This document shows, one piece after another, positions 1-50,362 of a stretch of DNA of 64,000 bases. A model generated the notes under the pieces. It had not been told where the DNA came from, ran no database searches, and saw only the letters and a program-made list of their open reading frames with translations. Both the position numbers and the translations under genes were made by a program. Within the stretch, counting starts at the first letter, position 1. Each line of letters begins with the position of its first letter. Source of the stretch: Slackia sp. (lineage in GTDB: Bacteria; Actinomycetota; Coriobacteriia; Anaerosomatales; Anaerosomataceae); contig DYEA01000008.1 in the NCBI GenBank assembly GCA_020725885.1, forward strand, positions 72,119-136,118, given 5' to 3'.

Positions 1-54
1 TGAAAACCGTTGACCCGCAAGGGTCCGTGGGTTCGAATCCCACCCCCTCCGCCA
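1..54 (+). tRNA. tRNA-Ser(TGA), 3' portion only; the 5' end lies outside the window
   Basis: The sequence tgaaaacc-[long variable-arm hairpin gacccgcaagggtc]-cgtgggttcgaatcccac-cccctccgcca matches the anticodon loop, type-II variable arm, T-arm and CCA end of bacterial tRNA-Ser(UGA). Confidence 0.6.
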
Positions 55-117
55 GCGACTCGACCCTTCCGCCGCACCCGTCGCTCGCCCCGCTCGCCCA
101 GCACGTCCGGGCTCGTG

Positions 118-34666: not shown

Positions 34667-34881
34667 TCGTGTGCGAATGAGGATACTACCATAGGTCGCG
34701 CGCAGAGAGGAACACCTGGCATCGGTTATGCTGCACATCCGATGCGGAGACGTTGCACCGCCGCGGGCCGCAGCCCCGATTCGCGGCGCTCACCACGCCG
34801 CCTTGTGGCAATGGTCACAAGAGTGGTGTAGGATGTAGTGAATCGTGCGTGGCGTCCAAAGCTGCATGTTGGAGGACACGC

Positions 34882-35967
34882 TTGACCTACGGCAGGACAT
34901 CGAGGACGCTTGCGGCGGCGACGTTGGTCGGCGTCGCTCTCATGCTCGCCGTAGCAACGTCCGCATACGCGTTCGACGAGACGACTGACACGATCCCTCC
35001 GTTCAACGAAGAGAACTGCGGCGGCTGCCACCAGCCGTACTTCACAGTGGGCTCAGGCGTTCACGGCAGCTACACGACGACCACGAGCAAGTGCCGGATG
35101 TGCCATTCGGTCCACGTCGCGCCCGCTGGGGGCGTGCTCCTGCTTCCTTCATCCACCATACAGGGCACGTGCTTCACTTGCCACGACGGCACGGGCGGCA
35201 AAGGCGTCTACGGCGCCATAGCGGCACGCGGCCTCGCCGTGGGAGGAAGGCACAGCACTGAGACGACGAACGTCGTTCCGGGAGGCGACGCCCTGACCGG
35301 CGGGAGCGCTGCGCAGTCGTTCCGCGGACAGGGCGGCACGCTCACGTGCACTGACTGCCATTCCCCACACGGCTCCGAGATCGTGACGGCGTTCCCGGGC
35401 GACAGACGTCGCATCTCTGGCATGCCGCCGCTGACTCTTACCCGCATGCTGCGTCAGCGTCCAGGAGAGGCCACGCAAGCCGTGAGCGAGTACGGCTCGG
35501 ACTGGTGCCTCGCGTGCCACCGAGGTCGTCGATCCGGTCTGCCGACGACCCACAACCACCCAGTGGAGTCGCTGACGACCACCGCGAACCCCTACAACTA
35601 CCGCGTCGCCGCGATCCTCGCGACCGACGCGCCGACCAGCACCGCAGTCCTCGGCAGCATCGGCATGACCAACCGCGGCTACCTCTGGCCGTATCCACGG
35701 CCGACGCTCATGAGAGGCCACTACCCGATCTGCCAGCAGTGCCACGAGGACACGCGCTACGTCGGCGAGCTCACGCCCGCAGGCACGCAGGGCGACGCGG
35801 CGACGTGGACGGTGAGCGCGGCGGACGGGACGGTATCGACCGACAACCCGCGCTTCCAGAACTTCCCTCACGAGACGACCGGGTACCGGCTGTTGGTGGA
35901 GGCCACGACGACCGCCTACTCCGACGACCTGTGCCTCAACTGCCACCCAGTCGCACAGCTGCCGTAG
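34882..35967 (+). CDS. Secreted heptaheme c-type cytochrome (paralog 1 of 3)
   Basis: TTG start has GGAGG 6 nt upstream. Signal peptide ...LMLAVATSAYA|FDETT. Seven CxxCH motifs (CGGCH, CRMCH, CFTCH, CTDCH, CLACH, CQQCH, CLNCH). Confidence 0.8.
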   Translation: MTYGRTSRTLAAATLVGVALMLAVATSAYAFDETTDTIPPFNEENCGGCHQPYFTVGSGVHGSYTTTTSKCRMCHSVHVAPAGGVLLLPSSTIQGTCFTCHDGTGGKGVYGAIAARGLAVGGRHSTETTNVVPGGDALTGGSAAQSFRGQGGTLTCTDCHSPHGSEIVTAFPGDRRRISGMPPLTLTRMLRQRPGEATQAVSEYGSDWCLACHRGRRSGLPTTHNHPVESLTTTANPYNYRVAAILATDAPTSTAVLGSIGMTNRGYLWPYPRPTLMRGHYPICQQCHEDTRYVGELTPAGTQGDAATWTVSAADGTVSTDNPRFQNFPHETTGYRLLVEATTTAYSDDLCLNCHPVAQLP

Positions 35968-36071: not shown

Positions 36072-37736
36072 ATGGACGAACCCCGCATCCTCGACCGCTA
36101 CCGTCCGCTCGCACGCCTCGGCGAAGGCGGCTATGGATCGGTCGTGCTCGCGTACGACACGAAGATGGCGCGGCGCGTGGCCATCAAGCATCTTCCGCTG
36201 CCGCCAGGCTCGCTGCGTGCACGTTCCCGCGCGCTGTCCGAGGCACGGACCGCGGCGATGCTCAACCACCCCGCCATCGTCACCGTCTTCGAATGGGAGC
36301 CGACCGACGACGGCGCGCTGTTGGTCATGGAGCACGTGGACGGCGCGTCGCTTGGGGAGGTGCTCGACGAGCTCGACGGCCCGCTCGATCTGGACGAGAC
36401 GGCCGCCATCGTCGACGCGGTCGCCGACGCGCTTTCGTTCGCGCACGCCAACGGAGTGCTGCACCTGGACCTGAAACCGGAGAACGTCCTCATCGACCGC
36501 GACGGTCGCGTGAAGGTCGCCGATTTCGGCGTCGCCGCGCTCACCGGCGTCGATCGCACCGGGACCCCTCGAGGCGGCACGCCTGGGTACATGGCTCCTG
36601 AGCACATCCGCGGCGAGCCGGTCACGCCGGCCGCGGACCAGTGGGCGTTCGCCGCTCTCGTCTACGAGATGCTCACCGGCGTCTGCCCCTTCGGGGCGGA
36701 CAGCCCGCAGCGCTCGCTCGTGCGCATCGAGGCGCGGAGCCTCCGGCCGGCGAGCGATCTCGCGAGAGGCCTTCCCCGCGGCGTCGACCTCGTGCTTGCG
36801 CGCGCGCTTGCACCCGACCCGCTCGAACGCTACCCGGACGTGACGACGTTCGCCGAGGCTCTGCTCGATCACCTCGGCGATACTCTGGCTGGCCGCGAGT
36901 CCCTCGCGGACGTGGTCGAGGATATCGTCGCCGAGGAGGAGCCGCCGGAAAGCGGGCCAGGCGTGTGGGATCGTCTTGTCGGCCGGCAAACGCTGCTCGG
37001 GCGCGCCGCAGCAGTCGTCCCCAGCGCCTGGCTTGGCTGGGCCGGCGCTTCTTGGGTCGCAGGAGGCGCAGGCGGGCTCGCAGCCGCAGTCTTGTGCGGT
37101 CTTGCCGCCGCCATCGCGCCCGCCTTAGGGCTTGCGCTCGCATTGCTTGCGACAGCCATGGGGGCAGGTGCAGCTTTCGGACCCGTCGCCGGAGCGGCCG
37201 CCGGGATCGTCGGGGCGCTGTGGTGGCTCGCCCTGGGACGGCGGCGCCCCGGGGCAGGCTTCGGCCTGCCGAGCGCGCCGCTCCTGGCGGCGATGCGCGC
37301 GGGTGCCGCCGCGCCGCTCGCGCTCGGCTTCTTCGCGGAGCCTGCTCCGGCCGCTGCCGCTGGGGCCGCCGCTGGAGCGCTGACGGCGCTGCTCTCCGCG
37401 CTCGCGCCGGATGCTCCGTCGGCGATCGCGCTGCCGATCGGCGTTCTTTCCGCCCCGTGGCGCTCGTTCGATCTGGCGCGTCTCGCCGGGCTGGACGTGC
37501 GCCTGCTCCTTGCAGTCGCCGCGTCATGGGGCCTTGCCGCACTCGTTGCGTCTCTCGGATCAGGCAGGGGCACGCGGCTCGGCGCGGCGCTCGGTCTTGC
37601 GAGCGGGCTCTCGCTGATGGCGGGCGCGCTCGCGGCAGTCTCGCCAGCGGGTCTCTCGGCCGCCCTGCCAGACCTTGCCGTCGCCGGCGCAGCGGCGGCT
37701 CTGGCCGTGGCGGCGGGCCCCTCGCCGCGCGGCTGA
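36072..37736 (+). CDS. Hanks-type Ser/Thr protein kinase with a long Ala/Gly-rich multi-TM C-terminal region
   Basis: Kinase subdomains GEGGYGSV, AIK, HLDLKPEN, DFG, GTPGYMAPE. The C-terminal ~250 aa is hydrophobic and Ala/Gly/Leu-rich. Confidence 0.85.
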   Translation: MDEPRILDRYRPLARLGEGGYGSVVLAYDTKMARRVAIKHLPLPPGSLRARSRALSEARTAAMLNHPAIVTVFEWEPTDDGALLVMEHVDGASLGEVLDELDGPLDLDETAAIVDAVADALSFAHANGVLHLDLKPENVLIDRDGRVKVADFGVAALTGVDRTGTPRGGTPGYMAPEHIRGEPVTPAADQWAFAALVYEMLTGVCPFGADSPQRSLVRIEARSLRPASDLARGLPRGVDLVLARALAPDPLERYPDVTTFAEALLDHLGDTLAGRESLADVVEDIVAEEEPPESGPGVWDRLVGRQTLLGRAAAVVPSAWLGWAGASWVAGGAGGLAAAVLCGLAAAIAPALGLALALLATAMGAGAAFGPVAGAAAGIVGALWWLALGRRRPGAGFGLPSAPLLAAMRAGAAAPLALGFFAEPAPAAAAGAAAGALTALLSALAPDAPSAIALPIGVLSAPWRSFDLARLAGLDVRLLLAVAASWGLAALVASLGSGRGTRLGAALGLASGLSLMAGALAAVSPAGLSAALPDLAVAGAAAALAVAAGPSPRG

Positions 37737-37822: not shown

Positions 37823-38530
37823 ATGGGCATCCTGGCTGATTTCGAGGACCGCATAGCCCGCAGCATCGAGGGGCTCTTCGCGGGCGCGTTCAGAGCGCCG
37901 GTGCAGCCTGTTGAGCTTGCCAAGGCGCTGGCGCGCGCCATGGACGACGGCCGCGTCGTGGGCGTGGACGCCGTGCTCGCTCCGTGCTCGTTCACCGTAG
38001 CGCTCTCCGAAGAGGACGCCGACGAGTTCGGCGACTTCACCTCGACGCTCGCTGGCGAGCTTGCGACGTACCTCGCAGACCACGCGCGAGAACGCGGCTA
38101 CCGCCTCGAGGGCAGGCCCGAGGTCCGGTTCGTCACTCACGAGGACCTGCGCCTCGGCCGGTTCCGGGTCGCGGCATCGCTCGTCCCAGCAGCCCCTGCG
38201 CGAGATGCGACCGGCCCGCGCAGCGCGACCCCGACGGCCCGCGTGCTCGCCACGGTGACCGTCGACGACTTCGACCACGACGTGGTCCTGGACGGCGACC
38301 AGGTGACCGTGGGACGGCTCAAGGAGTGCCAGATCCGGCTTGACGACGCGAACGTCTCTCGCCGACACGCTGCGTTCATCCGGTTGCCGGACGGATGGGC
38401 CATCGAAGACCTCGATTCCACGAACGGCACGCGTGTCAACGGCAAGTCGATCACGCGGGCGCGTCTTCACGACGGGGACATCATCGAGATCGGACTCTCC
38501 CGCCTCGTCTACCACGAGTCCAAGGAGTGA
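37823..38530 (+). CDS. fhaA: FhaA-like protein (DUF3662 N-domain plus C-terminal FHA domain)
   Basis: ATG 37823 has GGAGG 7 nt upstream. The FHA core is GRLKECQIRLDDANVSRRHAAF...STNGTRVNG. The upstream part of track ORF 36641-38530 is antisense junk. Confidence 0.8.
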   Translation: MGILADFEDRIARSIEGLFAGAFRAPVQPVELAKALARAMDDGRVVGVDAVLAPCSFTVALSEEDADEFGDFTSTLAGELATYLADHARERGYRLEGRPEVRFVTHEDLRLGRFRVAASLVPAAPARDATGPRSATPTARVLATVTVDDFDHDVVLDGDQVTVGRLKECQIRLDDANVSRRHAAFIRLPDGWAIEDLDSTNGTRVNGKSITRARLHDGDIIEIGLSRLVYHESKE

Positions 38531-38533
38531 TCC

Positions 38534-38953
38534 GTGGCCGACGTCGTGCTGCTGTTCGGGCGGCTGCTGTTCTTGGCGCTGCTGTACCTGTTCCTCTTCG
38601 CGGCGGTCCGGACCGGGATCGGGCTGGTAGCGACCGGCAAGGCGCGCACGGCCCCTCGGGGACTCGCTCTGGTCGTCGCCCAGGGACCGCGCGAGATCCG
38701 GGGCGTCCGCGTGCCGCTCGACGGCCCGGTGCTCATCGGACGCTCGCCTGACGCCGACCTCGTGATCGCTGACGAGTTCGTGTCCGGCATCCACGCGCGG
38801 GTGACACCCGACGGCGACGGTGTCCTGGTCGAGGACCTCGGTTCGACCAACGGGACGCTGCTCGACGGGCAACCGGTCACCCGGCCGATGCGCGGGAGCG
38901 CGGGCTCACGGATCGTGCTCGGCCGAAACGAGATCGAGGTGGTGGCCTCGTGA
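38534..38953 (+). CDS. fhaB: FhaB/FipA-like membrane-anchored FHA-domain protein
   Basis: N-terminal TM, then an FHA domain (GRSPDADLVIADEFVSGIHARV...STNGTLLDG). RBS AAGGAG. Confidence 0.8.
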   Translation: MADVVLLFGRLLFLALLYLFLFAAVRTGIGLVATGKARTAPRGLALVVAQGPREIRGVRVPLDGPVLIGRSPDADLVIADEFVSGIHARVTPDGDGVLVEDLGSTNGTLLDGQPVTRPMRGSAGSRIVLGRNEIEVVAS

Positions 38954-40101
38954 GGGCCGCGTCGCGCCGTCATGAATGGTACGCGGGCGCGAGCGACGTC
39001 GGGCTCGTGCGGCCCGGCAACGAGGACGCCTTCTTGATGGAGCCGCCTCTGTTCGCGGTCGCAGACGGCCTCGGCGGCCACCGGGCCGGCGAGGTGGCGA
39101 GCACGGTCGCCGTCGAGACGCTCTTCGCGCACGCCCCGAAGCACGCCGATGCGAAGGGCCTCGCGCGGGCTGTGCGCGCGGCGAACGCCGCGGTGATCGA
39201 GGCCGCCGAGCAAGGCCGCGGACGAGAGGGCATGGGCACGACGCTTACCGCTGCGATGGTCGAGGGGACCCGCATCGCGCTCGCGCACGTCGGCGACAGC
39301 CGTGCGTACCTGCTCGCGCGAGGCGAGCTGGTGCAGCTCACCCAGGACCACTCGCTCGTCGGCGACATGGTGCGGTCCGGCACGCTGTCTGCGGAGGCCG
39401 CCCGCGTCCACCCGAACCGGAGCGTCATCACCCGCGCGCTGGGCTCCGACCCGAACATGGTGGCGGATGCCTTCGAGGTCGAAGCGTCTCCGGGCGACAG
39501 GCTCCTGCTCTGCACCGACGGATTGACAGGGATGGTCGAAGACGCCGCCATCGCCGAGGTGCTTCGGACCGCCCCCTCGCCGAAGGCCGCGGTGGCCCGC
39601 CTGATCGCCGCCGCCAACGACGCCGGCGGCCACGATAACATCACGGTGGTCGTGGTCGACATCGGGGCGGACCGTTCCCGCGAAGACCGGACGAGCGCCG
39701 CGACGCGCGGGAATCCCAGTGCTGACGCGCGCGAGCCCGGGCGTTCGCCTCGGCGGGTCTGGCTGGCTCGTCTGGCGTGGGCGCTCGCGCTTGCCGCGGC
39801 GGTCGGCGGCGCTGTGCTCGCCGCACGCGGCTACGCGCGGTCTCAGGCGTACCTTGCGGTGGTGGACGGCCGCGTCGCCGTCTACCGCGGCGTGCCTGGC
39901 GAGTTCGCTGGGGCGCAGCTGCATTGGCTCGAGCAGGTCACAGACGTCCCGGTGGCTGGCCTCGACCCCGTGACCGCGGCGCGTCTCGCACGCGGCATCC
40001 GGGTCGACGGGGTCGCGGCGGCCTTCGACTTGGTGGCCGCGTACCGCTCGCAGACTGCGCGCGAGTCGAACCCGTCCGCTGAGCCGACGACCGCGCCCTG
40101 A
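38950..40101 (+). CDS. pstP: PP2C-family Ser/Thr phosphatase (PstP-like) with a C-terminal TM
   Basis: DVGLVRPGNEDAF, FAVADGLGGH, LCTDGL and DNITVVVVD PP2C motifs. The GTGA start overlaps fhaB. Confidence 0.9.
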   Translation: MRAASRRHEWYAGASDVGLVRPGNEDAFLMEPPLFAVADGLGGHRAGEVASTVAVETLFAHAPKHADAKGLARAVRAANAAVIEAAEQGRGREGMGTTLTAAMVEGTRIALAHVGDSRAYLLARGELVQLTQDHSLVGDMVRSGTLSAEAARVHPNRSVITRALGSDPNMVADAFEVEASPGDRLLLCTDGLTGMVEDAAIAEVLRTAPSPKAAVARLIAAANDAGGHDNITVVVVDIGADRSREDRTSAATRGNPSADAREPGRSPRRVWLARLAWALALAAAVGGAVLAARGYARSQAYLAVVDGRVAVYRGVPGEFAGAQLHWLEQVTDVPVAGLDPVTAARLARGIRVDGVAAAFDLVAAYRSQTARESNPSAEPTTAP

Positions 40102-40110
40102 GGAGCGGCC

Positions 40111-42849
40111 GTGCGCACTCGCCGCGACACCGAGCTTCTCCTTCTGCTGGCGGCGACGCCGCCGGTGCTGCTGCTCTTCGCACTCGTGCACAGCGCTGCG
40201 GCGCAGTCGTTGGCGTGGCGAGACCTCGCTGTGCCGTTCGGGCTGCTCGCGGCATTCGCTGTCGCGCACCTGACCGCCCGCCGCTGGGCGCCGGGCGCCG
40301 ACCCCGTCCTGCTGCCGCTCGCCTTCCTGCTGACCGGCGTCGGGCTGGCGTTCGTCACCCGCCTCGCGCCCGACCTCGCCCCCGCCCAGACCCTGTGGGT
40401 CTTCGCGGGCGTAACCGCGCTGGTCGGCACGCTCGCAACGGTACGCTCGATCGAGCGGCTCGCCCGGTACAAGTACACGGTCGCTCTCGGAGGCGTGGCG
40501 CTCCTGCTCCTTCCCGCAGTTGCCGGCGTGGAGGTCAACGGCGCGAAGCTCTGGCTGCGCGTCGGCGGCGTCTCGTTCCAGCCAGTCGAGGCTGCCAAAG
40601 TGCTCGTGGTCGTGTTCCTTGCGGCGTACCTCGCCGAGAAGCGCGAGCTCCTGTCGGTCTCCACGAAACGCGTGTTCGGCGTGTGGATGCCCCCGCTCAA
40701 GCACCTCGGGCCGCTGCTTCTCATGTGGTCGCTCTCGCTCGTCGTGCTCGTGGCCGAGCGCGACTTAGGGTCGAGCCTGCTGCTCTTCGGATTGTTCCTC
40801 GCGATGCTGTACGTAGCGACCGGCCGACCGGGCTACGTGCTCGTCGGCGCGGCGCTCTTCGCGGCGGGCGCGGTCGGCGCATACCTGCTGTTCGGCCACG
40901 TCGCGGCGCGCGTAGCGATCTGGCTCGACCCGTTCGCGGACGCGGCCGGGCGAGGCTACCAGCTCGTCCAGTCGCTCTTCGCGTTCGCGGCGGGCGGCAT
41001 GACCGGCACCGGTCCGGGCCGAGGGCTCCCGACCCGCATCCCGTTCGTCGACACCGACTTCATCTTCGCCGCCATCGGCGAGGAGCTGGGGCTCCTTGGC
41101 GCCGCCGGCCTGCTGATCGCCTACCTGGTGTTCGCCGCTCGTGGCTTCGCGACGGCCGCGCGGGCCCGCTCGGACGTCGGGGCCTTCGTGGCAGCCGGCG
41201 CCACGACGGTCATCGCGCTCCAGACGTTCGTGATTGCCGCAGGCGTGACGCGGCTCGTCCCTCTCACCGGCATCACGATGCCGTTCGTGAGCAGGGGCGG
41301 GTCGAGCCTGCTCGCGAACTTCGTGCTGCTCGGGCTCCTCATGCGCGCCGGCGACGAGGGCACGGGACGCGCCGAGCAGCTCGCCACCACCGGAGCGACC
41401 GGGGCGCTCGGACGCGTCGCGGTGGCCCGCAGGCTGGCAGCGCTGACGCGCGTCCTGGCGTTCGCGCTCGTGGCGGTGGTGGTCAACCTCACGTACCTGC
41501 AGGTGGTCGCGGCTCCGGCGCTCGCCAACCACCCCGCCAACACCCGTCGGATCGCAGACGAGATCCGGCAGGAGCGCGGCGCGATCGTCACGCACGACGG
41601 CGTCGTGCTGGCGCAGTCGGTGCCTGCCGGCCGCGCGTTCGAACGGCGGTATCCGGGCGGAGCGCTCGCGCCGCACGTCGTCGGCTACAGCAGCCCGACG
41701 TACGGACGAGCGGGCATCGAGGCGGCGATGAACGAGGTGCTCGCCGGCCGGCGGATGTTCGCGTCGATGCGGGACCTCGTCGACGCGCTCGCGGGCACGC
41801 CCGTGGCGGGCAACGACGTGCGGCTCACGATCGACAGCCGCGTGCAGCAAGCAGCCGTTGCGGCGCTCGAAGGTCGGCGTGGAGCGTGCGTCGTGCTCGA
41901 CCCGCGAGACGGCCGCGTGCTCGCGCTCGCGTCGAGCCCCGGCTTCGACCCGGCCGCGATCGACGACGACTGGGGGCGGCTTTCGGCGGACCCCGCCGCT
42001 CCCCTGCTCAACCGCGCGGCCCAGAGCCTCTACCCGCCGGGCTCGACCTTCAAGGTCGTCACGCTCGCAGGCGCCGTCGGAGCGAAGCTCGTCACGCCAT
42101 CGACGACGTTCCCTGGCCCCGCTCGCCTCGAGATCGGCGGGGCGCCGGTGACGAACTACGGCGGTGAGGGGTACGGCACCGTCACGGTCGAGCGGGCCAC
42201 CGCCTCGAGCATCAACACCGTCTTCGCGCAGATCGCCGACCGCATGGGGCCGGACCTGCTCGTGAAGACAGCCCGGAGCTTCGGCTTCGGCGAGCAGCCG
42301 CCGCTCGAAATCCCGGCGAAAGCGTCGCTCATGCCCGACCCCCGCGAGATGACGCGCTGGGAGACGGCGTGGGCGGGCGTCGGACAGCCCGTCGGCGAGC
42401 ACCCGAGCCCGCCAGGGCCCCAGGTCACCGCGCTCCAGATGGCGCTCGTGGCAGCCGGCATCGCGAACGACGGCGTCGTGATGCAACCGTACCTGGTGGA
42501 GGCGATCACGGACCCTGCCGGCCGCACGCTGTCCACCACGCACCCGAAGCCGTGGAAGACCGCCTGCGGCGCGCAGACCGCAGCCACCGTGCGCGACATG
42601 ATGGTGACGGTCGTGCGCTCGGGCTCGGGCACCCGCGCCGCCATCAAAGGCGTGACTGTCGCTGGCAAGACCGGGACCGCGGAGGTCGGCAAAGGTGCGC
42701 AGACGCACGCTTGGTTCATCGCGTTCGCGCCGGCGGAGCAGCCGCGCGTAGCGCTCGCGATCGTGCTAGAGAATTCGGGCGTCGGGGGCCGCGTGGCAGC
42801 ACCTGCGGCAAAGCCCGTGCTGGAGACCGCGCTATCGCGGGTGCGATAG
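40111..42849 (+). CDS. Single-polypeptide fusion of a SEDS glycosyltransferase (RodA/FtsW, N-terminal ~420 aa) with a class-B penicillin-binding transpeptidase (PbpA/PBP2, C-terminal ~490 aa)
   Basis: N-terminal half: 10 TM helices, GGVSFQPVEAAKV and ITMPFVSRGGSSLLANF SEDS signatures. A retained TM helix LTRVLAFALVAVVVNLTY follows. The PBP dimerisation and transpeptidase domain has SxxK (PGSTFKVVT), SxN and KTGTA. One uninterrupted 912-codon frame; AGGAG RBS. Confidence 0.85.
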   Translation: MRTRRDTELLLLLAATPPVLLLFALVHSAAAQSLAWRDLAVPFGLLAAFAVAHLTARRWAPGADPVLLPLAFLLTGVGLAFVTRLAPDLAPAQTLWVFAGVTALVGTLATVRSIERLARYKYTVALGGVALLLLPAVAGVEVNGAKLWLRVGGVSFQPVEAAKVLVVVFLAAYLAEKRELLSVSTKRVFGVWMPPLKHLGPLLLMWSLSLVVLVAERDLGSSLLLFGLFLAMLYVATGRPGYVLVGAALFAAGAVGAYLLFGHVAARVAIWLDPFADAAGRGYQLVQSLFAFAAGGMTGTGPGRGLPTRIPFVDTDFIFAAIGEELGLLGAAGLLIAYLVFAARGFATAARARSDVGAFVAAGATTVIALQTFVIAAGVTRLVPLTGITMPFVSRGGSSLLANFVLLGLLMRAGDEGTGRAEQLATTGATGALGRVAVARRLAALTRVLAFALVAVVVNLTYLQVVAAPALANHPANTRRIADEIRQERGAIVTHDGVVLAQSVPAGRAFERRYPGGALAPHVVGYSSPTYGRAGIEAAMNEVLAGRRMFASMRDLVDALAGTPVAGNDVRLTIDSRVQQAAVAALEGRRGACVVLDPRDGRVLALASSPGFDPAAIDDDWGRLSADPAAPLLNRAAQSLYPPGSTFKVVTLAGAVGAKLVTPSTTFPGPARLEIGGAPVTNYGGEGYGTVTVERATASSINTVFAQIADRMGPDLLVKTARSFGFGEQPPLEIPAKASLMPDPREMTRWETAWAGVGQPVGEHPSPPGPQVTALQMALVAAGIANDGVVMQPYLVEAITDPAGRTLSTTHPKPWKTACGAQTAATVRDMMVTVVRSGSGTRAAIKGVTVAGKTGTAEVGKGAQTHAWFIAFAPAEQPRVALAIVLENSGVGGRVAAPAAKPVLETALSRVR

Positions 42850-42897: not shown

Positions 42898-44745
42898 ATG
42901 ACAGTGGAAGACAGGATCTTCGGGCGCAGATACCGCGTGACGGAGCGCATCGGCTCAGGGGGGATGGCCGAGGTCTTCAAGGCGGTCGACGAGGTGCTGG
43001 GCCGGACCGTCGCGGTCAAGGTGCTCCACCCCCAGTACGCGCAGGAGCCGAACTTCGTCGCACGGTTCCGCCAGGAGGCGCAAGCGGCGGCGAACCTGTC
43101 GCACCCGAGCATCGTGAACATCTACGACTGGGGCCGCGACGACGACACGTACTACATCGTCATGGAGTACGTGCGCGGCACCGACCTCAAGACGCTCGTC
43201 GAGCAGGAAGGACCGCTCGACCCGCGCACCGCCGCTCAGTACGGCGCCCAGGTGTGCGCCGCGCTCTCGGTCGCGCACGGCTACGGCATCATCCACCGCG
43301 ACATCAAGCCGCACAACATCGTCATCACCCCCGACGGCACCGTGAAGGTGATGGACTTCGGCATCGCCCGCGCAGGCAACACCACCATGACGCAGACCGG
43401 CTCGGTGCTCGGCACTGCGCAGTACGTGAGCCCCGAGCAGGCGCAAGGCCGCACGCTCACGCCCGCGACCGACCTGTACTCCCTCGGCGTCACGCTGTAC
43501 GAGGCGGTGACCGGACGGCTGCCGTTCGACGGCGACACGCCGGTGGCGATCGCGCTCAAGCACGTGAACGAGGAGCCCGTGCCGCCGCGCCGAGTCCGGC
43601 CGGCAGTGCCCCCAGCGCTCGAGGCCGTGATCATGAAGGCCATGCGGAAGAACCCCGCCGAGCGCTACGAGTCGGCCGCGGCGATGCGCGACGACCTGCT
43701 GCGCGTCGCGCGCGGCGAGGAGCCGGCGGCTGCGGGGACCGGTGCGCCCGCGATCGCCGAGACCTCGGTGCTGCCGAGCGTCGGCGCTGGGGGCGAGCAA
43801 CCGCTTCCCGGCGGCCGGCCGCAGATCCGCCCCGTGCCCGATCGCCGCACGAATCCGTGGGCGTGGGCGGCGGTGGCCGCGCTCGTGCTCGTGCTCGGCC
43901 TCGGCGGCGCATGGGCGCTCGGCGCGTTCGGCGAAGGCACCGTCGCTGTGCCGAGCGTCGTCGGGATGAGCGAGGAGGAGGCGTCCGCGACCGTCGCGGC
44001 CGCCGGGCTTTCCATCGGCACCGTCACCACCGAGAACAGCGACGAGTACGAGCTCGGGCTGATCATGCGCCAGGATCCGCCGGCGGGCACGCGCGTGAAG
44101 AAGGGCACCGCGATCAACATCGTCGTGAGCGCCGGTGTCGCGATGGTGGAGGTCCCGAACGTGGTCGGGATGACCGAGGCGGACGCCATCGCGGCCATCG
44201 AGGGCGCGCAGCTCGAAGTGGCGCTGCCGATCGGCCGGGAGTACAGCAAGGAGGTGCCCGAAGGAGTCGTGATCTCGTCCGAGCCGACCGGCGGCGCGCA
44301 GGTGCCGAAGGGCTCGAAGGTCGCGATCGTGGTCTCGAAGGGCACGCAGCTCGTGAAGGTCCCCGACGTCACCGGCAAGACGAAAGCCGACGCGCAGCGC
44401 ATCCTCGAGCAGGCCGGGTTCAAAGTGAAGGCCGTCGAGGCGTTCAGCGACGCGGTGGCCAAAGGGATGGTGATTTCGCAAGACCCGAGCCCAGGCGTGT
44501 CCCTCGACGCCGGCGGCACCGTGACGATCACGGTCTCGAAGGGGCCGGAGCAGGTGACCGTGCCCGACGTGACCGACATGACCGAGGAGGACGCGATCTC
44601 GACCCTCGAAGGGCTGGGGCTCATCGTGGACGCCGAGTACGTCGTGAGCCCGGACGTCGGCATCGTGCTCAACCAAGACCCGCTGCCCGGCACGAAGGTC
44701 AACAAAGGCTCGACGGTGCGGCTGACGATCGGCCGGGCGCCGTAA
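42898..44745 (+). CDS. pknB: Ser/Thr protein kinase PknB with four extracellular PASTA domains
   Basis: Kinase motifs GSGGMAEV, AVK, HRDIKPHN, DFG, GTAQYVSPEQ. A TM helix, then 4 PASTA repeats (VPSVVGMSEEEA..., VPNVVGMTEADA..., VPDVTGKTKADA..., VPDVTDMTEEDA...). Confidence 0.9.
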   Translation: MTVEDRIFGRRYRVTERIGSGGMAEVFKAVDEVLGRTVAVKVLHPQYAQEPNFVARFRQEAQAAANLSHPSIVNIYDWGRDDDTYYIVMEYVRGTDLKTLVEQEGPLDPRTAAQYGAQVCAALSVAHGYGIIHRDIKPHNIVITPDGTVKVMDFGIARAGNTTMTQTGSVLGTAQYVSPEQAQGRTLTPATDLYSLGVTLYEAVTGRLPFDGDTPVAIALKHVNEEPVPPRRVRPAVPPALEAVIMKAMRKNPAERYESAAAMRDDLLRVARGEEPAAAGTGAPAIAETSVLPSVGAGGEQPLPGGRPQIRPVPDRRTNPWAWAAVAALVLVLGLGGAWALGAFGEGTVAVPSVVGMSEEEASATVAAAGLSIGTVTTENSDEYELGLIMRQDPPAGTRVKKGTAINIVVSAGVAMVEVPNVVGMTEADAIAAIEGAQLEVALPIGREYSKEVPEGVVISSEPTGGAQVPKGSKVAIVVSKGTQLVKVPDVTGKTKADAQRILEQAGFKVKAVEAFSDAVAKGMVISQDPSPGVSLDAGGTVTITVSKGPEQVTVPDVTDMTEEDAISTLEGLGLIVDAEYVVSPDVGIVLNQDPLPGTKVNKGSTVRLTIGRAP

Positions 44746-45528: not shown

Positions 45529-45604
45529 GCCCTCGTAGCTCAGGGGATAGAGCACAGGTTTCCTAAACCTGGTGTCGCAGGTTCGAATCCTGCCGGGGGC
45601 ACCA
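45529..45604 (+). tRNA. tRNA-Arg(CCT)
   Basis: GCCCTCG-TA-GCTCAGGGGATAGAGC-A-CAGGT-TT-CCT-AA-ACCTG-GTGTC-GCAGGTTCGAATCCTGC-CGGGGGC-A-CCA. A TATACT -10-like hexamer lies about 12 nt upstream. Confidence 0.9.
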
Positions 45605-45721
45605 CCCGCATCCCCTCGCGCCCGCACCGCCGCAACCCGCCTCACGCGACCGCCCGTGCAGGGAAGCCCTCCCCGGCGCCGAATACTGAACTCTGGTGAA
45701 GAGTCTCGCGAAGGGGGTCCC

Positions 45722-47890
45722 GTGGCACGCGGCGCTGACGAACGGCGAACCCACCAGCACATCCGGGCGCTCATGGCCCAGACGACCGACGCGCTTATCG
45801 CGGTCGGCCCCGACGGCGAGATCCGCATCTTCAACGAGACGGCAGAAGGGCTGCTCGGCAAGACGCGCGCGGAGATGGTCGGCCGCCACTTCACGGCGCT
45901 CGGGCTGCCCAAGGTCGAGCGCGCGGTCGAGACGCTGCTGCGCCCGCGCTCCAAGCGGCAGCCGCACACCGTCCGCCTCGCGCACGACGGGCGCCTCCTG
46001 CACGCCACCGTCGCGCCCTACATGTGCGGCGAGCGCCGCGCAGCCGTCGTCACCATCCGCGACGAGACGCCGCTCGAGCAGGCCCGCAAGAAGGCGGAAG
46101 CGATCCTCGCGAGCACGGGCGACGGGCTCATCGTCTTCGACCCGGAAGACGTCGTCACCTACATCAACCCCACCGCCTGCGCGTTCCTCGGCGTCAAGCC
46201 GCGCTCCGTGCTCGGGAAGCGCACCGACCTCGCCGAGCTGCTCGACCTCGTCACCGATGACGGCTACGACCCCGCCGTCGACGGGTCGCAGATCCGCGAG
46301 GTCCGGCTCGAGAAGCCGGCCCACCGCATCCTCGACGTCCGGACGGACCCCGTCCTCGACGAGCGCGGCATGTACCTCGGCTACGTCGCGACGCTGCACG
46401 ACGTCACGGCCGAGCGCGAAGTCAGCCAGATGAAGAACGAGTTCGTCTCGACGGTCTCGCACGAGCTGCGCACACCGCTCACCTCGATCAAGGGCTACGT
46501 CGACTTGATACTCGACGGCGAGGCCGGCGAGATCAACGAGATCCAGCGCGAGTTCCTGTCGATCGTCAAAGAGAACGCTGACCGGCTCGTCGACCTCATC
46601 AACGACATGCTCGACATCTCGCGCATCGAAAGCGGGCGGATCCACCTGAAGATCCAGCCCATCGACGTGCGCGACCTGGCGCTCGACGTAGCCGGCACCT
46701 TCGCGGCGGTTGCCGACCGCTCTGGCCACAAGATCGTCGTCAAGGTGCCCGACGACGTCCCTCGCGTCGCCGGCGACCGCGACCGTGTCGGACAGGTGCT
46801 CACGAACTTCGTCAGCAACGCCATCAAGTACTCGCCCGAGGGCGGCACCGTCACCATCCGGGCGAAGCACGAGGGCGACTTCGTGCAGGTCAGCATCACC
46901 GACCAGGGCATCGGCATCGAGAAGGAAGACCAGAAGAAGCTCTTCACGAAGTTCTACCGGGTGGACTCCACCCTCACCCGCGAGATCGGCGGCACCGGCC
47001 TCGGCCTGTCCATCTGCAAGAGCATCATCGAGCTCCTGGGCGGCCAAGTCGGCGTCCGGAGCAAGCCCGGCAAGGGCTCGACCTTCTACTTCACGCTGCC
47101 GGTCGCTCCGAAGGACCTCGTGCGCACACCAGGGCTCGAGGCCTCTGCGCTCGGCGGCAAGATCCTCGTCGTCGACCGCGACCCCGAGATCGCGAACCTC
47201 GTCGAGACCTACCTCACCAAGCAAGGATACGAGGTCGTGAAGGCGCACACCGCGCGGGAGGCGCTCGCCAAGGCGCAGAGCGAGGCGCCCCGCGTCATCA
47301 CGCTCGATGTGATGCTGGACGACGCGGACGGCTTCGACCTGCTGCAGGCGCTCAAAGACGACCCGCGCACCGCCGAGATCCCCGTGCTCGTGCTGTCGAT
47401 CGTCTGCGACGAGGGCCGCTCGTGCCGGCTCGGCGCCGCAGAGTACCTCGAGAAGCCGATCGACAAGCAGCGCCTGGTCGGCATCGTGAACGCGCTCGTG
47501 GGATCGGTAGCCGCGCCGGTCGTCCTCGTCGTCGACGACGACCGCAGCATCGTGAACGTGCTCCGCGACACCCTGAAGACCCGAGGGTACTCCATCGTTG
47601 CGGCGTACGACGGCGCCGAGGCGATGGCGGCGGTCCGCAAGCGCAAGCCGGACCTGATCCTGCTCGATCTCCAGATGCCGGTCATGGACGGGTACGAGGT
47701 CATCGAGGCCATCAAGACCGACCCTGACCTGAAGGACATCCCGATCGTCATCATGACCGCGTACCAGATCGACCGCTCGCGCATCGACATCCTCGGCATG
47801 GCCGAGCAGAAGGTCGACAAGCCGTTCTCCGCTGAAGAGCTCGTACGCCGCATCGAGGCGCTGCTTGCCGCAGAGGAGGCCGCGCAATGA
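45722..47890 (+). CDS. Hybrid sensor histidine kinase: PAS-PAS-HisKA-HATPase_c plus two C-terminal receiver (REC) domains
   Basis: GTG 45722 has GAAGGGGG upstream, and the track ORF start lies inside the tRNA. H-box VSTVSHELRTPLTSIKGY; N, G1, G2 boxes (GGTGLGLSICK). Two REC domains with the phospho-accepting D (LDVMLDD..., LDLQMPVMDG). Confidence 0.85.
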   Translation: MARGADERRTHQHIRALMAQTTDALIAVGPDGEIRIFNETAEGLLGKTRAEMVGRHFTALGLPKVERAVETLLRPRSKRQPHTVRLAHDGRLLHATVAPYMCGERRAAVVTIRDETPLEQARKKAEAILASTGDGLIVFDPEDVVTYINPTACAFLGVKPRSVLGKRTDLAELLDLVTDDGYDPAVDGSQIREVRLEKPAHRILDVRTDPVLDERGMYLGYVATLHDVTAEREVSQMKNEFVSTVSHELRTPLTSIKGYVDLILDGEAGEINEIQREFLSIVKENADRLVDLINDMLDISRIESGRIHLKIQPIDVRDLALDVAGTFAAVADRSGHKIVVKVPDDVPRVAGDRDRVGQVLTNFVSNAIKYSPEGGTVTIRAKHEGDFVQVSITDQGIGIEKEDQKKLFTKFYRVDSTLTREIGGTGLGLSICKSIIELLGGQVGVRSKPGKGSTFYFTLPVAPKDLVRTPGLEASALGGKILVVDRDPEIANLVETYLTKQGYEVVKAHTAREALAKAQSEAPRVITLDVMLDDADGFDLLQALKDDPRTAEIPVLVLSIVCDEGRSCRLGAAEYLEKPIDKQRLVGIVNALVGSVAAPVVLVVDDDRSIVNVLRDTLKTRGYSIVAAYDGAEAMAAVRKRKPDLILLDLQMPVMDGYEVIEAIKTDPDLKDIPIVIMTAYQIDRSRIDILGMAEQKVDKPFSAEELVRRIEALLAAEEAAQ

Positions 47891-48255
47891 GCCGCATCCT
47901 CGTCGCCGACGACGAGCCGCACATCCTCAAGTTGGTGAGCTTCACGTTGAGCAACCACGGGCACGAGGTGCTCACTGTGACTGACGGCAAAGCGGCCGTT
48001 GAGGCCGCAGAGCGCGAGCGGCCCGATCTTGTCTTGCTCGACGTGATGATGCCGGAGATGAACGGGTACGAGGCGGCGCGGCTGATCAAGGAGAATCCCG
48101 CGACGAAGGACATCCCCGTGGTGATGCTGTCGGCGAAGTCCCAGCAGTACGAGATCCGGCAAGGACTCGATTGCGGCGCGGAGGACTACGTCTGCAAGCC
48201 GTTCACTCCACGGGCGTTGCTCGAGAAGGTCGATGAGATCCTGCGACAGAGGTGA
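47887..48255 (+). CDS. Stand-alone CheY-like receiver protein 1
   Basis: ILVADDEP...LLDVMMPEMNG...K (the DD...D...K receiver signature). The ATGA start overlaps the kinase stop. Confidence 0.85.
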   Translation: MSRILVADDEPHILKLVSFTLSNHGHEVLTVTDGKAAVEAAERERPDLVLLDVMMPEMNGYEAARLIKENPATKDIPVVMLSAKSQQYEIRQGLDCGAEDYVCKPFTPRALLEKVDEILRQR

Positions 48256-48270
48256 AGGAAGGGGCCGGCC

Positions 48271-48720
48271 ATGAAAGCGAAGATCCTGGTCGTCGACGAC
48301 GAGCCGAACATCCAGAAGCTGCTCACGGTGGCGCTGACGAACCGCGGTCACGAGGTGGTGACCGCGTCCAACGGCGTCGAGGCGCTCGCGATGGTCGAGA
48401 CAGAGGAGCCGGATCTCGTCGTCCTCGACGTGATGATGCCCAAGATGGACGGCCATCAGGTACGAGAGGAGATCCGGCGGCGCGGCAACCAGGTGCCGAT
48501 CCTCTTCCTGTCGGCAGCGGGCACGTTCGAAGAGCAAGTCGAGCAGATGAAAGACGAGAACGTCGACTACATCCCGAAGCCGTTCAAGCCGGCTGAGGTG
48601 GCCGACCACATCGAGGCGATGCTCGACCCTGCCCGCCGCGCCGAGTTCGAGCGCGAACGTCACCGCCGCGAGGCGAAGCTGCACACGATCGTCAACATCA
48701 TGCACCGGGATCGAGAGTAG
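48271..48720 (+). CDS. Stand-alone receiver protein 2 with a C-terminal charged tail
   Basis: ILVVDDEPNIQ...VLDVMMPKMDG...IPKPF. Confidence 0.85.
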   Translation: MKAKILVVDDEPNIQKLLTVALTNRGHEVVTASNGVEALAMVETEEPDLVVLDVMMPKMDGHQVREEIRRRGNQVPILFLSAAGTFEEQVEQMKDENVDYIPKPFKPAEVADHIEAMLDPARRAEFERERHRREAKLHTIVNIMHRDRE

Positions 48721-48752
48721 GCGCGTTCGAGCGTCACGAGGGAGGGGCGCCC

Positions 48753-49124
48753 GTGACGGCAAGAAGGGTCCTCATCGCCGACGACAACCTGCAGATACGG
48801 ATGCTCGTGAAGGCCGCGCTCCGGTCGCTCGACTGCGAGATAGCAGAAGCGGTCGACGGCGAGCAGGCGCTGGAGGCGGCTGTCACCGACCCGCCCGACC
48901 TGCTGCTTCTTGACGTGACGATGCCGAAACTGGACGGATTCGAGGTGCTCGCGTTCCTCCGGAAGCGCCCCGAGACGGCGTCGTTGAAAGTGGTGATGCT
49001 CACCACCGCCGGCCAGAAGACCGACTTGCAGCGCGGCGTCGAGCTCGGCTGCGACGACTACGTGGTCAAGCCGTTCGAGCCCCGGGCGCTTCGTGAGACG
49101 GTCGAACGGGTGCTGGATTCCTGA
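48753..49124 (+). CDS. Stand-alone CheY-like receiver protein 3
   Basis: GTG start follows GAGGGAGGGG. VLIADDNLQIR...LLDVTMPKLDG...VVKPF. Confidence 0.85.
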   Translation: MTARRVLIADDNLQIRMLVKAALRSLDCEIAEAVDGEQALEAAVTDPPDLLLLDVTMPKLDGFEVLAFLRKRPETASLKVVMLTTAGQKTDLQRGVELGCDDYVVKPFEPRALRETVERVLDS

Positions 49125-49204: not shown

Positions 49205-50362
49205 GTGAGGACTGATATGCTGCTGGGTCGGCGCCTGAGGGGCGCCGCTATCGTTTCCGCATGTCTCCTTGCATTCTGCGTCGGCGTCGCGCCTTCGGCC
49301 TATGCGTTCGACGAGACGACCTCCACCTACACCCCCGGCGTCGGCTGCGCGGACTGCCACAACCCGAACGGCACCACCGGCACCGGCACCCGAGTCGGCC
49401 CGCACTCAGGTTACAGCGCATCCACGGCCGCATGCGAGTGCTGCCACACGGTCCACGACGCGCCCACTGCGAACAAGCTGCTCCCAGGCGAGACCATCAA
49501 GTCGACCTGCTTCACCTGCCACGACGGCACGACGACGCAGGGCCAGGGCGTGTACGGAGCGATCGAAGCTCGGGGCGCCAGCGTCGGAGCACAGCACCGC
49601 ATCGAGACGACGAGCGTCGTGCCTGGCGGCAGTGCGACCACAGGCGGCAGCGCCACGATGGCGTTTTCTGGCCCGAACCAGACGCTGACGTGCTCGGATT
49701 GTCATTCGCCGCATGGGCGCAACCTCGTCACGCCGTTCCTGGGCGAGCGCCAGCGCTCGTACTGGTTCCAGCGCGATTACCACGGCCTGCTCACGGTGCA
49801 GGTCCAGAGCCGCCTGCTCAAGCAGCGGCCAGGCGGCGTCGCGACGGCCGTGCCGGAGTACGGCTCAGACTGGTGCCTCGCATGCCATGCCGGCCGCGCG
49901 TCCGGCCTCCCGACCACGCACAACCACCCCGTCGAATCGCTGCTCACCACGACGAATCCGGCGAACTACCGGGCGGCCGCCATCGTTTCGGCGGGACCTG
50001 GCCCCACGAGCCAGACCACGATCGGCCCGATGGGCATCAACACCAAGGTCGTGGGCTACAACCGCGGCTACCTGTGGCCGTATCCCCGGACCGGTGCGCA
50101 GGCCGGACGGTACCCGATCTGCCAGCAGTGCCACGAGGACTTGCGCTACGTCGGCGAGCTCACCACGGCAGGACTGCCCGCGCAGGCGATACCGTCGACC
50201 GCGACCGTCACCTCTCCTGACGGCCGCACGGCCTCCGACAACCCGCGGTTCCAGAACTTCCCCCACGAGACGCTGGGCTATCGGATGCTCGTGGAAGCGA
50301 CCACGACCGCCTATAGCGACGACCTCTGCCTCAACTGCCACCCGATCCTGCAGCTGCCGTAG
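49205..50362 (+). CDS. Secreted heptaheme c-type cytochrome (paralog 2)
   Basis: GTG start follows GAGGGGGAG. Signal peptide ...APSAYA|FDETT. Seven CxxCH motifs (CADCH, CECCH, CFTCH, CSDCH, CLACH, CQQCH, CLNCH). The C-terminus is ~85-90% nucleotide-identical to paralogs 1 and 3. Confidence 0.85.
   Translation: MRTDMLLGRRLRGAAIVSACLLAFCVGVAPSAYAFDETTSTYTPGVGCADCHNPNGTTGTGTRVGPHSGYSASTAACECCHTVHDAPTANKLLPGETIKSTCFTCHDGTTTQGQGVYGAIEARGASVGAQHRIETTSVVPGGSATTGGSATMAFSGPNQTLTCSDCHSPHGRNLVTPFLGERQRSYWFQRDYHGLLTVQVQSRLLKQRPGGVATAVPEYGSDWCLACHAGRASGLPTTHNHPVESLLTTTNPANYRAAAIVSAGPGPTSQTTIGPMGINTKVVGYNRGYLWPYPRTGAQAGRYPICQQCHEDLRYVGELTTAGLPAQAIPSTATVTSPDGRTASDNPRFQNFPHETLGYRMLVEATTTAYSDDLCLNCHPILQLP

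Follow-up and report, generated by a model that had tools for sequence, protein, structure and literature searches.

In this study, a 64,000-nucleotide stretch of DNA, referred to as the window, was analysed around one open reading frame (ORF) that encodes a protein of 912 aa. The domain order of the protein was SEDS glycosyltransferase, linker, anchor helix, PBP-A dimerisation domain and transpeptidase (Table 1). The gene has a GTG start with GAGGAG six bases ahead of it, and its frame is closed by a stop codon. Domains were called with Pfam profiles, and the matches were far above the Pfam cut-offs. FTSW_RODA_SPOVE (PF01098) matched aa 92–413 (E 4e-72; 243.5 bits, cut-off 26.4), PBP_dimer_2 matched aa 489–570 (E 3e-19; 69.3 bits, cut-off 27), and the transpeptidase profile matched aa 591–905 with 217 bits. 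The catalytic motifs were all intact. The initial annotation had described one 912-codon frame in which a SEDS protein is fused to a class B PBP (bPBP), and this was confirmed by the ORF, the three Pfam domains and an unbroken GC3 signal.

Table 1. Coordinates of the fused gene, its parts and its neighbours in the window
Feature	Position (nt)	Strand	Evidence
Hanks-type Ser/Thr kinase upstream of fhaA, 554 aa	36072–37736	+	Pkinase E 3e-47
fhaA (FhaA_N + FHA)	37824–38530	+	FhaA_N E 3e-33, FHA E 5e-20; ATG at 37824 after GGAGGA
fhaB, single FHA domain, 139 aa	38534–38953	+	FHA E 1e-17
pstP, PP2C Ser/Thr phosphatase	38950–40101	+	PP2C_2 E 6e-17, PP2C E 7e-12
Fused SEDS-bPBP gene, orthologue of actinobacterial rodA+pbpA	40111–42849	+	Single ORF, three Pfam domains
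N-terminal extension, two predicted helices (aa 4–31, 36–59) before the SEDS core	40120–40287	+	AF2
SEDS glycosyltransferase core, aa 67–413	40309–41349	+	Alignment to PDB SEDS chains
Cytoplasmic linker, aa 414–447, Thr-rich (RodA C-terminal tail + PbpA N-terminal tail)	41350–41451	+	Model, alignment
PBP membrane anchor helix, aa 448–466, ending in conserved N-L-T-Y-x-Q	41452–41508	+	Kyte-Doolittle, AF2
PBP-A dimerisation domain PF21922, standing where canonical bPBPs have the pedestal PF03717	41575–41820	+	Pfam
D,D-transpeptidase domain PF00905	41881–42825	+	Pfam E 4e-64, motifs
pknB, kinase + four PASTA repeats	42898–44745	+	Pkinase E 6e-55, PASTA x4 E 2e-69

The stop codon of pstP was 9 nt ahead of the start of the fused gene, and the gap between the fused gene's stop and pknB was 48 nt. 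Pfam calls and gene boundaries agreed with the fhaA-fhaB-pstP-...-pknB cluster named in the initial annotation: fhaA, fhaB, pstP and the PASTA kinase stood in canonical order. The arrangement with pstP directly upstream and pknB directly downstream of the fused gene was also found in loci L001–L018. Synteny was identical in relatives at 86% and 68% identity, and the closest named relative was Parvivirga hydrogeniphila of the Anaerosomatales (86% identity). No second kinase was present between the fused gene and pknB, and an extra kinase was seen ahead of fhaA, as had been pointed out. The kinase domain of this upstream gene scored 134 bits to PknB chains and 118 bits to PknA chains; the difference does not discriminate, and its assignment as PknA was dropped. 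No Pfam domain was found in its C-terminal ~280 aa. The upstream kinase occupied the same position in loci L001–L003, in Collinsella and in Thermoleophilia. The novelty implied for this layout did not hold up: the absence of pknA together with an upstream kinase was common to Collinsella and to Thermoleophilia, Gaiellales and Solirubrobacterales loci with separate rodA and pbpA. Among the matches listed, the two-kinase form was found only in loci of class Actinomycetes. Most Streptomyces also lack pknA (PMC13432765). Both features of the layout, the lack of pknA and the kinase ahead of fhaA, are traits of the lineage that also occur in Thermoleophilia.

The SEDS core aligned to FtsW (8bh1), E. 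coli MrdB (8tj3_B) and T. thermophilus RodA (6pl5/6bar), and PDB SEDS chains aligned to the fused protein only from aa 67 onward. The structure was modelled by AF2, with moderate inter-domain confidence (pTM 0.65). The model showed ten helices over aa 67–413 and two extra N-terminal helices; hydrophobic segments were found in the N-terminal extension at aa 9–27 and 38–56. Of the initial proposal of a ten-helix SEDS part followed by the PBP's own membrane anchor, the anchor was recovered, and the helix count was corrected from 10+1 to a predicted 12+1 for the fused protein. Hydrophobicity and the model were consistent with one predicted topology: the N-terminus is positively charged, the SEDS part has an even helix count, and the cytoplasmic linker then leads through a single helix to the PBP. 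E160 and K163 sit in FQPxExAK, and the catalytic Asp, D316 (codon 41056–41058), in T-D-F-I-F. D316 aligned with position 262 of E. coli MrdB (8tj3_B), and E. coli RodA(D262A) is inactive (PMC6207328). In an alignment of 22 fused proteins at 27–63% identity, E160, D316, S645, K648, S700, N702 and K853-T-G were invariant, and K163 was kept in at least 90%. The sequence suggested that the SEDS half polymerises lipid II.

A single strong hydrophobic helix followed the SEDS block (Kyte-Doolittle mean 2.31). This anchor is part of model helix 431–466, and its residues N459, L460, Y462 and Q464 were invariant in the clade. The pedestal PF03717 had no Pfam match in the fused protein. The motifs SxxK, SxN and KTGTA that had been listed for the transpeptidase were each found once in the fused protein, as S645-T-F-K (codon 42043–42045), S700-I-N and K853-T-G-T-A (codon 42667–42669), and SxxK, SxN and KTG were invariant across diverse fused homologues. 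Judged by its domains, anchor and motifs, the PBP half is a class B PBP of the PBP-A subtype, and it would be expected to have transpeptidase activity.

The SEDS half scored 192.4 bits on the NCBIfam model rodA_shape (TIGR02210, cut-off 336.7) and 241.7 bits on ftsW (TIGR02614, cut-off 337.5). Against PDB chains it scored 119 bits for FtsW and 104–107 bits for RodA. It reached neither the RodA nor the FtsW equivalog cut-off, so its subtype is not assignable by sequence, and the name RodA is taken from synteny only, as FtsW models outscored RodA models. The higher FtsW scores would fit a septal synthase of the FtsW-FtsI type instead of an elongation synthase of the RodA-PBP2 type, and Dasgupta et al. 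2006, in the title cited in PMC6736417, call mycobacterial PBPA "required for cell division". However, all of the SEDS scores were under the equivalog cut-offs, and the PBP half was best on the pbp2_mrdA model, with 316 bits against 85 for FtsI. The locus is the pstP-pknB cluster, not dcw, and separate canonical FtsI and MrdA pairs are also reported for Senegalimassilia faecalis (PMC12516126), which carries a fused protein as well. A septal role was considered rather doubtful.

The linker had ~34 residues in the window protein, 35±1 in a 25-sequence clade alignment and 23–72 over all fused proteins. In the clade alignment, G431, L433, G434, R435, A437 and R441 were invariant, and Ser or Thr was found at positions 418 (96%), 427 (84%) and 430 (76%). 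Residues 417–430 were predicted to be disordered (pLDDT <50, AF2). Such a disordered stretch would be compatible with one transcript giving two proteins, by internal initiation or linker proteolysis, and hence an ordinary non-covalent RodA-PbpA pair. In split relatives PbpA begins, at the rodA stop, with M-N-x-x-I-R-R-L followed by the TM helix; similarly, an in-frame GTG (V438, nt 41422–41424) precedes A-R-R-L and the TM helix in the window. Engineered fusions were also partly cleaved, the cleavage of RodA-PBP2 seen by Rohs et al. being minor (PMC6207328). However, position 438 was Leu in 19 of the 25 clade members and is not a conserved start, and no Shine-Dalgarno-like sequence was found upstream of the GTG at V438. 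One frame has been kept over 27–63% identity and in two or more independent origins; this speaks for selection on the covalent link. Two separate products were judged improbable.

The frame-specific GC3 profile was investigated over 41191–41551. GC3 in the ORF frame was 0.88–0.95 and unbroken through the junction; one alternative frame contained stops, and the remaining one had low GC3. Because of this, the GC3 profile and ORF calls gave no sign of a hidden frameshift at the junction, and a hidden frameshift or stop was rejected on the profile and on homologue conservation. The search for homologues of the same architecture, advised in the initial annotation, gave a uniform result: all of the best 120 database homologues, from NCBI, JGI, ENA, MGnify and Logan assemblies, were single fused proteins of 831–943 aa, nearly all of 910–916 aa.

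The distribution of the fusion was determined by a genome scan of at least 80 loci, tested ORF by ORF. Scan matches to query residues 1–910 had suggested a widespread fusion, but at the ORF level most such loci were two adjacent genes. Among the matches listed, 19 of 21 Coriobacteriia loci had a single ORF, including the isolate genomes of Collinsella aerofaciens, Adlercreutzia sp. and Parvivirga hydrogeniphila. The other Actinomycetota loci with both halves in view had two ORFs in every case among the matches listed. The statement that rodA and pbpA are adjacent but separate elsewhere in Actinomycetota was thus upheld, in line with the canonical cluster fhaA-fhaB-pstP-rodA-pbpA-pknA-pknB (PMC6554272), and the concern that close relatives might be split was not borne out, as these were fused. 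The two exceptions were Collinsella MAGs (L020 and L021). By DNA comparison with a 98–99% identical isolate gene, their linker had a short stretch inserted or partly duplicated, which is probably an assembly or strain indel rather than a secondary fission.

An assembly or sequencing artefact, in which a lost base merged separate rodA and pbpA in the window only, would need just a one-base error where neighbours abut or overlap by 1–4 nt, as they do in Actinomycetota outside Coriobacteriia, and the two Collinsella MAGs show that linker indels do arise in assemblies, but it can safely be discarded against 120 fused homologues from five assembly sources, 19 independent single-ORF Coriobacteriia loci with isolates included (among the matches listed), a fixed linker length with invariant residues and the unbroken GC3 signal. 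The gene at 40111–42849 is a genuine single gene joining a RodA/FtsW-type glycan polymerase to a PBP-A-type cross-linking partner.

In a neighbour-joining tree, the Coriobacteriia fused genes, including that of the window, formed one clade in 100 of 100 bootstraps, nested within split Actinomycetota. By this tree, the two genes fused once at the base of Coriobacteriia and, independently, once in Anaerolineae. At the split loci, pbpA overlapped the rodA stop in all three loci with the start located. The fusion is the normal, inherited state throughout class Coriobacteriia and is ordinary for the lineage.

The gene can be identified, with a probability of about 85%, as a single-chain peptidoglycan synthase, a vertically inherited rodA+pbpA orthologue with one origin at the base of Coriobacteriia. 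This reading draws on direct observation of gene structure, domain identities, catalytic-residue conservation, taxonomic distribution and single origin. The N-terminal SEDS glycosyltransferase would polymerise lipid II to glycan strands. The short cytoplasmic linker and the extra TM helix would lead to a PBP-A-type transpeptidase that would cross-link stem peptides on the outer side of the membrane. The fusion probably arose by an indel that removed the stop/start junction between translationally coupled rodA and pbpA. The covalent link would fix a 1:1 SEDS:bPBP stoichiometry, where other bacteria pair the two non-covalently. Control is probably exerted by the co-encoded PknB, PstP and FHA proteins, as in split orthologues, and possibly via conserved linker Thr residues.

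The conserved, disordered, Thr-rich linker may be a phospho-switch, not a passive tether. Through it, the PknB, PstP and FHA proteins encoded alongside would govern both coupled activities of the single-chain synthase, polymerase and transpeptidase. The idea is speculative and is drawn from the conserved linker Thr residues and from analogy. Thr463 of mycobacterial RodA presumably lies in the C-terminal tail, if RodA is 469 aa long. In M. bovis BCG, RodA carries a phosphate on Thr463 (PMC4389566), and PbpA is dephosphorylated in vitro by PstP (PMC6554272). If the idea were true, the Coriobacteriia protein would be a natural minimal system for SEDS-bPBP regulation, especially in its thermophilic Anaerosomatales version.

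For genome annotation the result has little consequence, since a Coriobacteriia genome is expected to carry this orthologue. A natural SEDS-bPBP fusion could ease the purification of a synthase with fixed stoichiometry, for biochemical work or cryo-EM, and the nearest cultured relative is thermophilic. SEDS-PBP coupling may work differently here, because PBP-A types lack the pedestal that activates RodA in E. coli and T. thermophilus, and such a partner could reveal how SEDS activation occurs in the absence of the pedestal.

The novelty implied in the initial annotation was not sustained for the fusion itself, which is class-wide, appears in a 2025 survey (PMC12516126, Microlife 2025), has been represented by PDB domains since 2013 and is annotated routinely by NCBI, as "FtsW/RodA/SpoVE family cell cycle protein". 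The survey, which found the natural fusion via an InterPro architecture search, describes a 931-aa GTase-PBPA_dimer-TPase protein of S. faecalis among "bifunctional class B PBPs". Both proteins come from Coriobacteriia and combine PF01098, PF21922 and PF00905 in one chain, and both genes have a Ser/Thr kinase gene and a phosphatase gene at their sides. S. faecalis belongs to a different taxonomic order, the nearest named relative of the window being in Anaerosomatales, and the window protein is shorter at 912 aa, mainly in the linker. The available text does not discuss class-wide distribution or origin from overlapping rodA-pbpA. Relative to that text, the fusion at the Coriobacteriia base, the separate Anaerolineae fusion and the origin from overlapping rodA-pbpA are incremental.

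The orthologous extracellular transpeptidase modules of Eggerthella lenta (4mnr) and Atopobium parvulum (4jbf/4n1x/4r1g/4ra7) have PDB crystal structures that date from 2013–14, titled [quoted passage not shown]. The window protein matched these modules at E 8e-117 to 1e-105, and the AF2 model matched them with target TM-scores of 0.92–0.94 at 43–46% identity (0.94, rmsd 1.8 Å and 46% for 4mnr). The A. parvulum domains were crystallised with β-lactams (penicillins and cephalosporins). These entries are excised soluble domains only, whereas the window encodes the full-length membrane fusion.

RodA (Rv0017c) and PbpA (Rv0016c) of Mycobacterium tuberculosis (Mtb) are orthologous by synteny and lie in the same FHA, PP2C and PASTA kinase cluster, and the PBP half matched 3lo7/3un7, structures of Mtb PBP-A, at E 2e-60 and with a target TM-score of 0.87. 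In Mtb the two genes are separate, pknA stands between pbpA and pknB, and the upstream kinase is missing, whereas the window has one fused gene and no pknA next to it. The non-covalent RodA-PBP2 and FtsW-FtsI complexes (6pl5/6pl6, 8tj3, 8bh1) contain the same two enzyme families as a 1:1 pair of polymerase and cross-linker. Their bPBPs pass activation to SEDS through the canonical pedestal, in place of which the window protein has the small PBP-A dimerisation domain. An engineered RodA-(GGGS)3-PBP2 with the same N-to-C order restored rod shape and polymerised lipid II, and a SpoVE-SpoVD fusion was functional in B. subtilis (PMC6207328). The natural linker is conserved and Thr-rich, in contrast to the artificial Gly-Ser spacer. 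Class A PBPs also unite glycan polymerase and D,D-transpeptidase in one polypeptide. Their polymerase is a monotopic, extracellular GT51 enzyme of unrelated fold, whereas that of the window is a polytopic SEDS protein; the likeness is one of analogy, not homology.

The SEDS (RodA/FtsW type) and class B PBP parts were encoded by a single open frame of 912 codons and a stop. The start codon was GTG, with GAGGAG six bases upstream. The penicillin-binding motifs S645-T-F-K, S700-I-N, and K853-T-G-T-A occurred once each in the product, and one strongly hydrophobic helix (448-466) lay between the enzyme parts. GC3 of the ORF frame was 0.88-0.95 over 41191-41551, that is, through the junction; there, one of the other frames had stops and the other had low GC3. 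Therefore, the sequence showed no sign of a concealed frameshift. The initial annotation had claimed a single in-frame SEDS-bPBP gene; the ORF, the three Pfam domains, and the GC3 profile bore this out, with no trace of a frameshift or stop at the junction. The fusion is a real gene.

Features of the fused protein (aa) and of the window (nt)
Feature	Position	Strand	Evidence or content
Fused SEDS-bPBP gene	40111-42849	+	912 aa
FTSW_RODA_SPOVE	aa 92-413		Pfam E 4e-72
PBP-A dimerisation domain PF21922	aa 489-570		Pfam E 3e-19
Transpeptidase domain	aa 591-905		Pfam E 4e-64
N-terminal helices, two	aa 4-31, 36-59		AlphaFold2
SEDS core, ten helices	aa 67-413		AlphaFold2
Low-confidence linker	aa 417-430		AlphaFold2, pLDDT below 50
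Long anchor-forming helix	aa 431-466		AlphaFold2
Extracellular PBP	after anchor helix		AlphaFold2
729-aa protein	30906-33095	-	SPFH/Band 7 (aa 271-484), sole recognisable domain
Multihaem c-type cytochromes, three	34753-35967, 49205-50362, 50436-51617	+	Paired_CXXCH_1, cytochrome c3/c7, weak MtrC/MtrF-like matches
Upstream Ser/Thr kinase	36072-37736	+	C-terminal ~280 residues without Pfam match
Hybrid PAS-HisKA-HATPase-REC histidine kinase, then three single-domain response regulators	45572-49124	+	regulators 122, 149, 123 aa

The closest named relative was strain Es71-Z0120 (Parvivirga hydrogeniphila, GCA_023371205.1; 86% identity). This thermophile reduces Fe(III), has thin rod-shaped cells and 17 multihaem cytochromes, and is a member of the order Anaerosomatales (formerly OPB41 lineage), class Coriobacteriia (PMC9686372). 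The window's G+C content of 68% and its three multihaem cytochrome genes, placed on both sides of the cell-wall cluster, agree with this lineage, and the cytochromes fit an Fe(III)-reducing organism such as P. hydrogeniphila. The histidine kinase and regulators had the same layout in a relative (L001, 15615-19024), just ahead of another multihaem cytochrome gene. The SPFH/Band 7 protein was of unusual length for its family.

In a search of 5.8 billion clustered proteins, each of the 120 best matches had the three-domain architecture. Their length was 831-943 aa (910-916 aa in nearly every case) and their identity ran from 95% down to 64%; they came from NCBI, JGI, ENA, MGnify, and Logan assemblies; most named entries carried a Coriobacteriia label. 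Close relatives were checked for split orthologues and were fused, including those at 86% and 68% identity. The contigs of these two had the gene order of the window: kinase, fhaA, fhaB, pstP, fused gene, PASTA kinase, and reverse-strand phosphoribosyltransferase. In an alignment of 25 homologues, the linker between SEDS core and anchor helix had a fixed length of 35 ± 1 residues, with G431, L433, G434, R435, A437, and R441 invariant. Thr/Ser was kept in the window's clade at positions 418 (96%), 427 (84%), and 430 (76%).

The SEDS half matched the solved structures of FtsW (8bh1, 119 bits), E. coli RodA/MrdB (8tj3_B, 107 bits), and T. thermophilus RodA (6pl5/6bar, 104 bits). FtsW models outscored RodA models for this half, all below equivalog cut-offs, and the PBP half scored highest on the PBP2/MrdA model, also below its cut-off. 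The enzyme may serve either elongation or division. D316, within the invariant T-D-F-I-F motif, aligned to E. coli RodA D262, and D262A abolishes polymerisation in that enzyme (PMC6207328). E160 and K163 lay in the conserved FQPxExAK loop. The PBP half was nearest to 4mnr, 4jbf, 4ra7, and 4n1x (E 8e-117 to 1e-105), followed by M. tuberculosis PBP-A (E 2e-60). Among 22 fused proteins of only 27-63% identity, E160, D316, S645, K648, S700, N702, and K853-T-G were invariant, which indicates purifying selection on both active sites.

The AlphaFold2 model had a mean pLDDT of 82.7 and a pTM of 0.65, and superposition of its PBP part on 4mnr gave a target TM-score of 0.94 (rmsd 1.8 A). The initial description gave a 10-TM SEDS part; the model placed two further N-terminal helices ahead of a predicted ten-helix core. 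These helices (aa 4-59, window 40120-40287) fell outside the region alignable to solved RodA/FtsW structures, and R5, E8, L9, P17, and F23 were invariant in the clade. The even SEDS helix count and the basic N-terminus would fit a linker in the cytoplasm and a PBP that faces outward. The fused protein is most likely a single-chain glycan polymerase and cross-linker, obligately 1:1. Engineered fusions support this reading as precedent: RodA-(GGGS)3-PBP2, which has the two halves arranged in this order, gives E. coli back most of its rod shape and can polymerise lipid II in vitro; SpoVE-SpoVD, likewise fused, is functional in B. subtilis sporulation (PMC6207328).

For the distribution, 1.84 billion representatives (50% identity clusters) were searched exhaustively. 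Among the top 150 matches, most were 830-1100 aa and aligned to the query as one unbroken stretch, with identity falling to ~31%; split forms (40-52% identity, about 410-480 aa) covered one half only. One genome per GTDB species was scanned, which gave at least 80 loci. Since the query is fully covered by adjacent split genes too, each locus was tested for a single stop-free ORF over the junction. Of the Coriobacteriia loci listed, 19 of 21 were fused, including Parvivirga, Eggerthellaceae, Adlercreutzia, Coriobacteriaceae, and Collinsella. The other two were Collinsella MAGs (L020, L021), compared with the 98-99% identical gene of a C. aerofaciens isolate (L018). In both, the linker had gained a short insertion or a partial duplication (about 4260-4300 in L020), which gave two overlapping ORFs; this is either an assembly or strain indel or a fission that took place very recently and precisely in the linker.

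Other Actinomycetota (Acidimicrobiia, Thermoleophilia, Gaiellales, Solirubrobacterales, Actinomycetes) and Firmicutes had two ORFs at every listed locus with both halves visible, five loci showing one half only; separate rodA and pbpA were initially stated for the canonical actinobacterial cluster. Five Anaerolineae and Caldilineaceae loci (L024, L035, L040, L047, L070) were fused, as was one protein from an Armatimonadota MAG. The flanks of the five loci contained neither a PP2C nor a kinase gene, and an FHA-domain gene was seen upstream in L035 and L070 only. Short MAG contigs labelled Burkholderiales (L043), Rubrivirga (L038), and Gemmatimonadales (protein P0296) carried actinobacterial-type FHA-PstP-rodA-pbpA-pknB clusters or a fused protein at 44-45% identity, and are probably mis-binned.

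In three split relatives, the pbpA start overlapped the rodA stop as ATGA (L064, L054) or by 1 nt (L029), and their PbpA began M-N-x-x-I-R-R-L, directly followed by the anchor helix. The fused linker therefore corresponds to the C-terminal tail of RodA joined to the short N-terminal tail of PbpA, with R-R-L kept; a small stop-removing indel would be enough to make the fusion. The SEDS and PBP parts of 34 taxa were concatenated (820 columns) for a neighbour-joining tree. All Coriobacteriia fused genes formed one clade (100/100 bootstraps) inside split Actinomycetota (77/100). The Anaerolineae fused genes formed their own clade beside a split Chloroflexia gene (locus L079) and grouped with Coriobacteriia in 0/100 bootstraps. 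The results indicated one fusion at the base of Coriobacteriia with vertical inheritance, and at least one independent fusion elsewhere.

The gene might instead yield two proteins, which is improbable: the linker contains a single in-frame start codon (GTG, V438), which lacks a ribosome-binding site and corresponds to Leu in 19 of 25 relatives, and the frame has persisted in deeply diverged proteins that arose independently at least twice. Single fused proteins in all 120 best matches from several assembly sources, the fixed length and invariant residues of the linker, and the continuous GC3 signal effectively exclude an assembly artefact.

The absence of pknA and the extra upstream kinase, also reported initially, were correct for the window by Pfam gene content and are a lineage trait. 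An upstream kinase with a single downstream PASTA kinase was also found in Collinsella and other Coriobacteriales loci, and in split-gene Thermoleophilia, Gaiellales, and Solirubrobacterales loci; among the loci listed, two downstream kinases occurred in class Actinomycetes only. Most Streptomyces reportedly lack pknA as well (PMC13432765). The upstream kinase was kept in place in Anaerosomatales and Collinsella, and in Thermoleophilia as a kinase-domain match; in Eggerthellaceae loci it was not found within 7 kb. Its kinase domain does not discriminate between PknA and PknB.

By analogy with split orthologues, the neighbouring PknB, PstP, and FHA products would regulate the fused enzyme. RodA is presumably 469 aa long, placing Thr463 in the C-terminal tail, the segment corresponding to the fused linker. 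Thr463 of M. bovis BCG RodA is phosphorylated (PMC4389566). In mycobacteria, pstP, rodA, and pbpA are co-transcribed, and PbpA is dephosphorylated by PstP in vitro (PMC6554272). The linker could by this analogy be a phospho-regulatory switch, a tentative idea with the odds against it; its conserved Thr/Ser and RodA Thr463 are a lead, not a result.

NCBI annotates these fused proteins as 'FtsW/RodA/SpoVE family cell cycle protein', and the literature search found no paper on biochemistry or genetics of a natural full-length fusion. For the Eggerthella lenta orthologue, the transpeptidase module has been in the PDB as an excised domain since 2013 (4mnr, 'D,D-Transpeptidase Domain of Peptidoglycan Glycosyltransferase'), and there is also a set of structures from Atopobium parvulum, with seven beta-lactams. 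The fused architecture is already published: PMC12516126 (Microlife 2025) reports 117 InterPro proteins that join bPBP transpeptidase and SEDS domains, and names them putative 'bifunctional' class B PBPs. The window gene is the expected orthologue for its class, with an architecture already described. To this, the analysis incrementally adds class-wide conservation that extends to the deep Anaerosomatales branch, one origin from overlapping rodA-pbpA, an independent Anaerolineae fusion, and a conserved Thr-rich linker.
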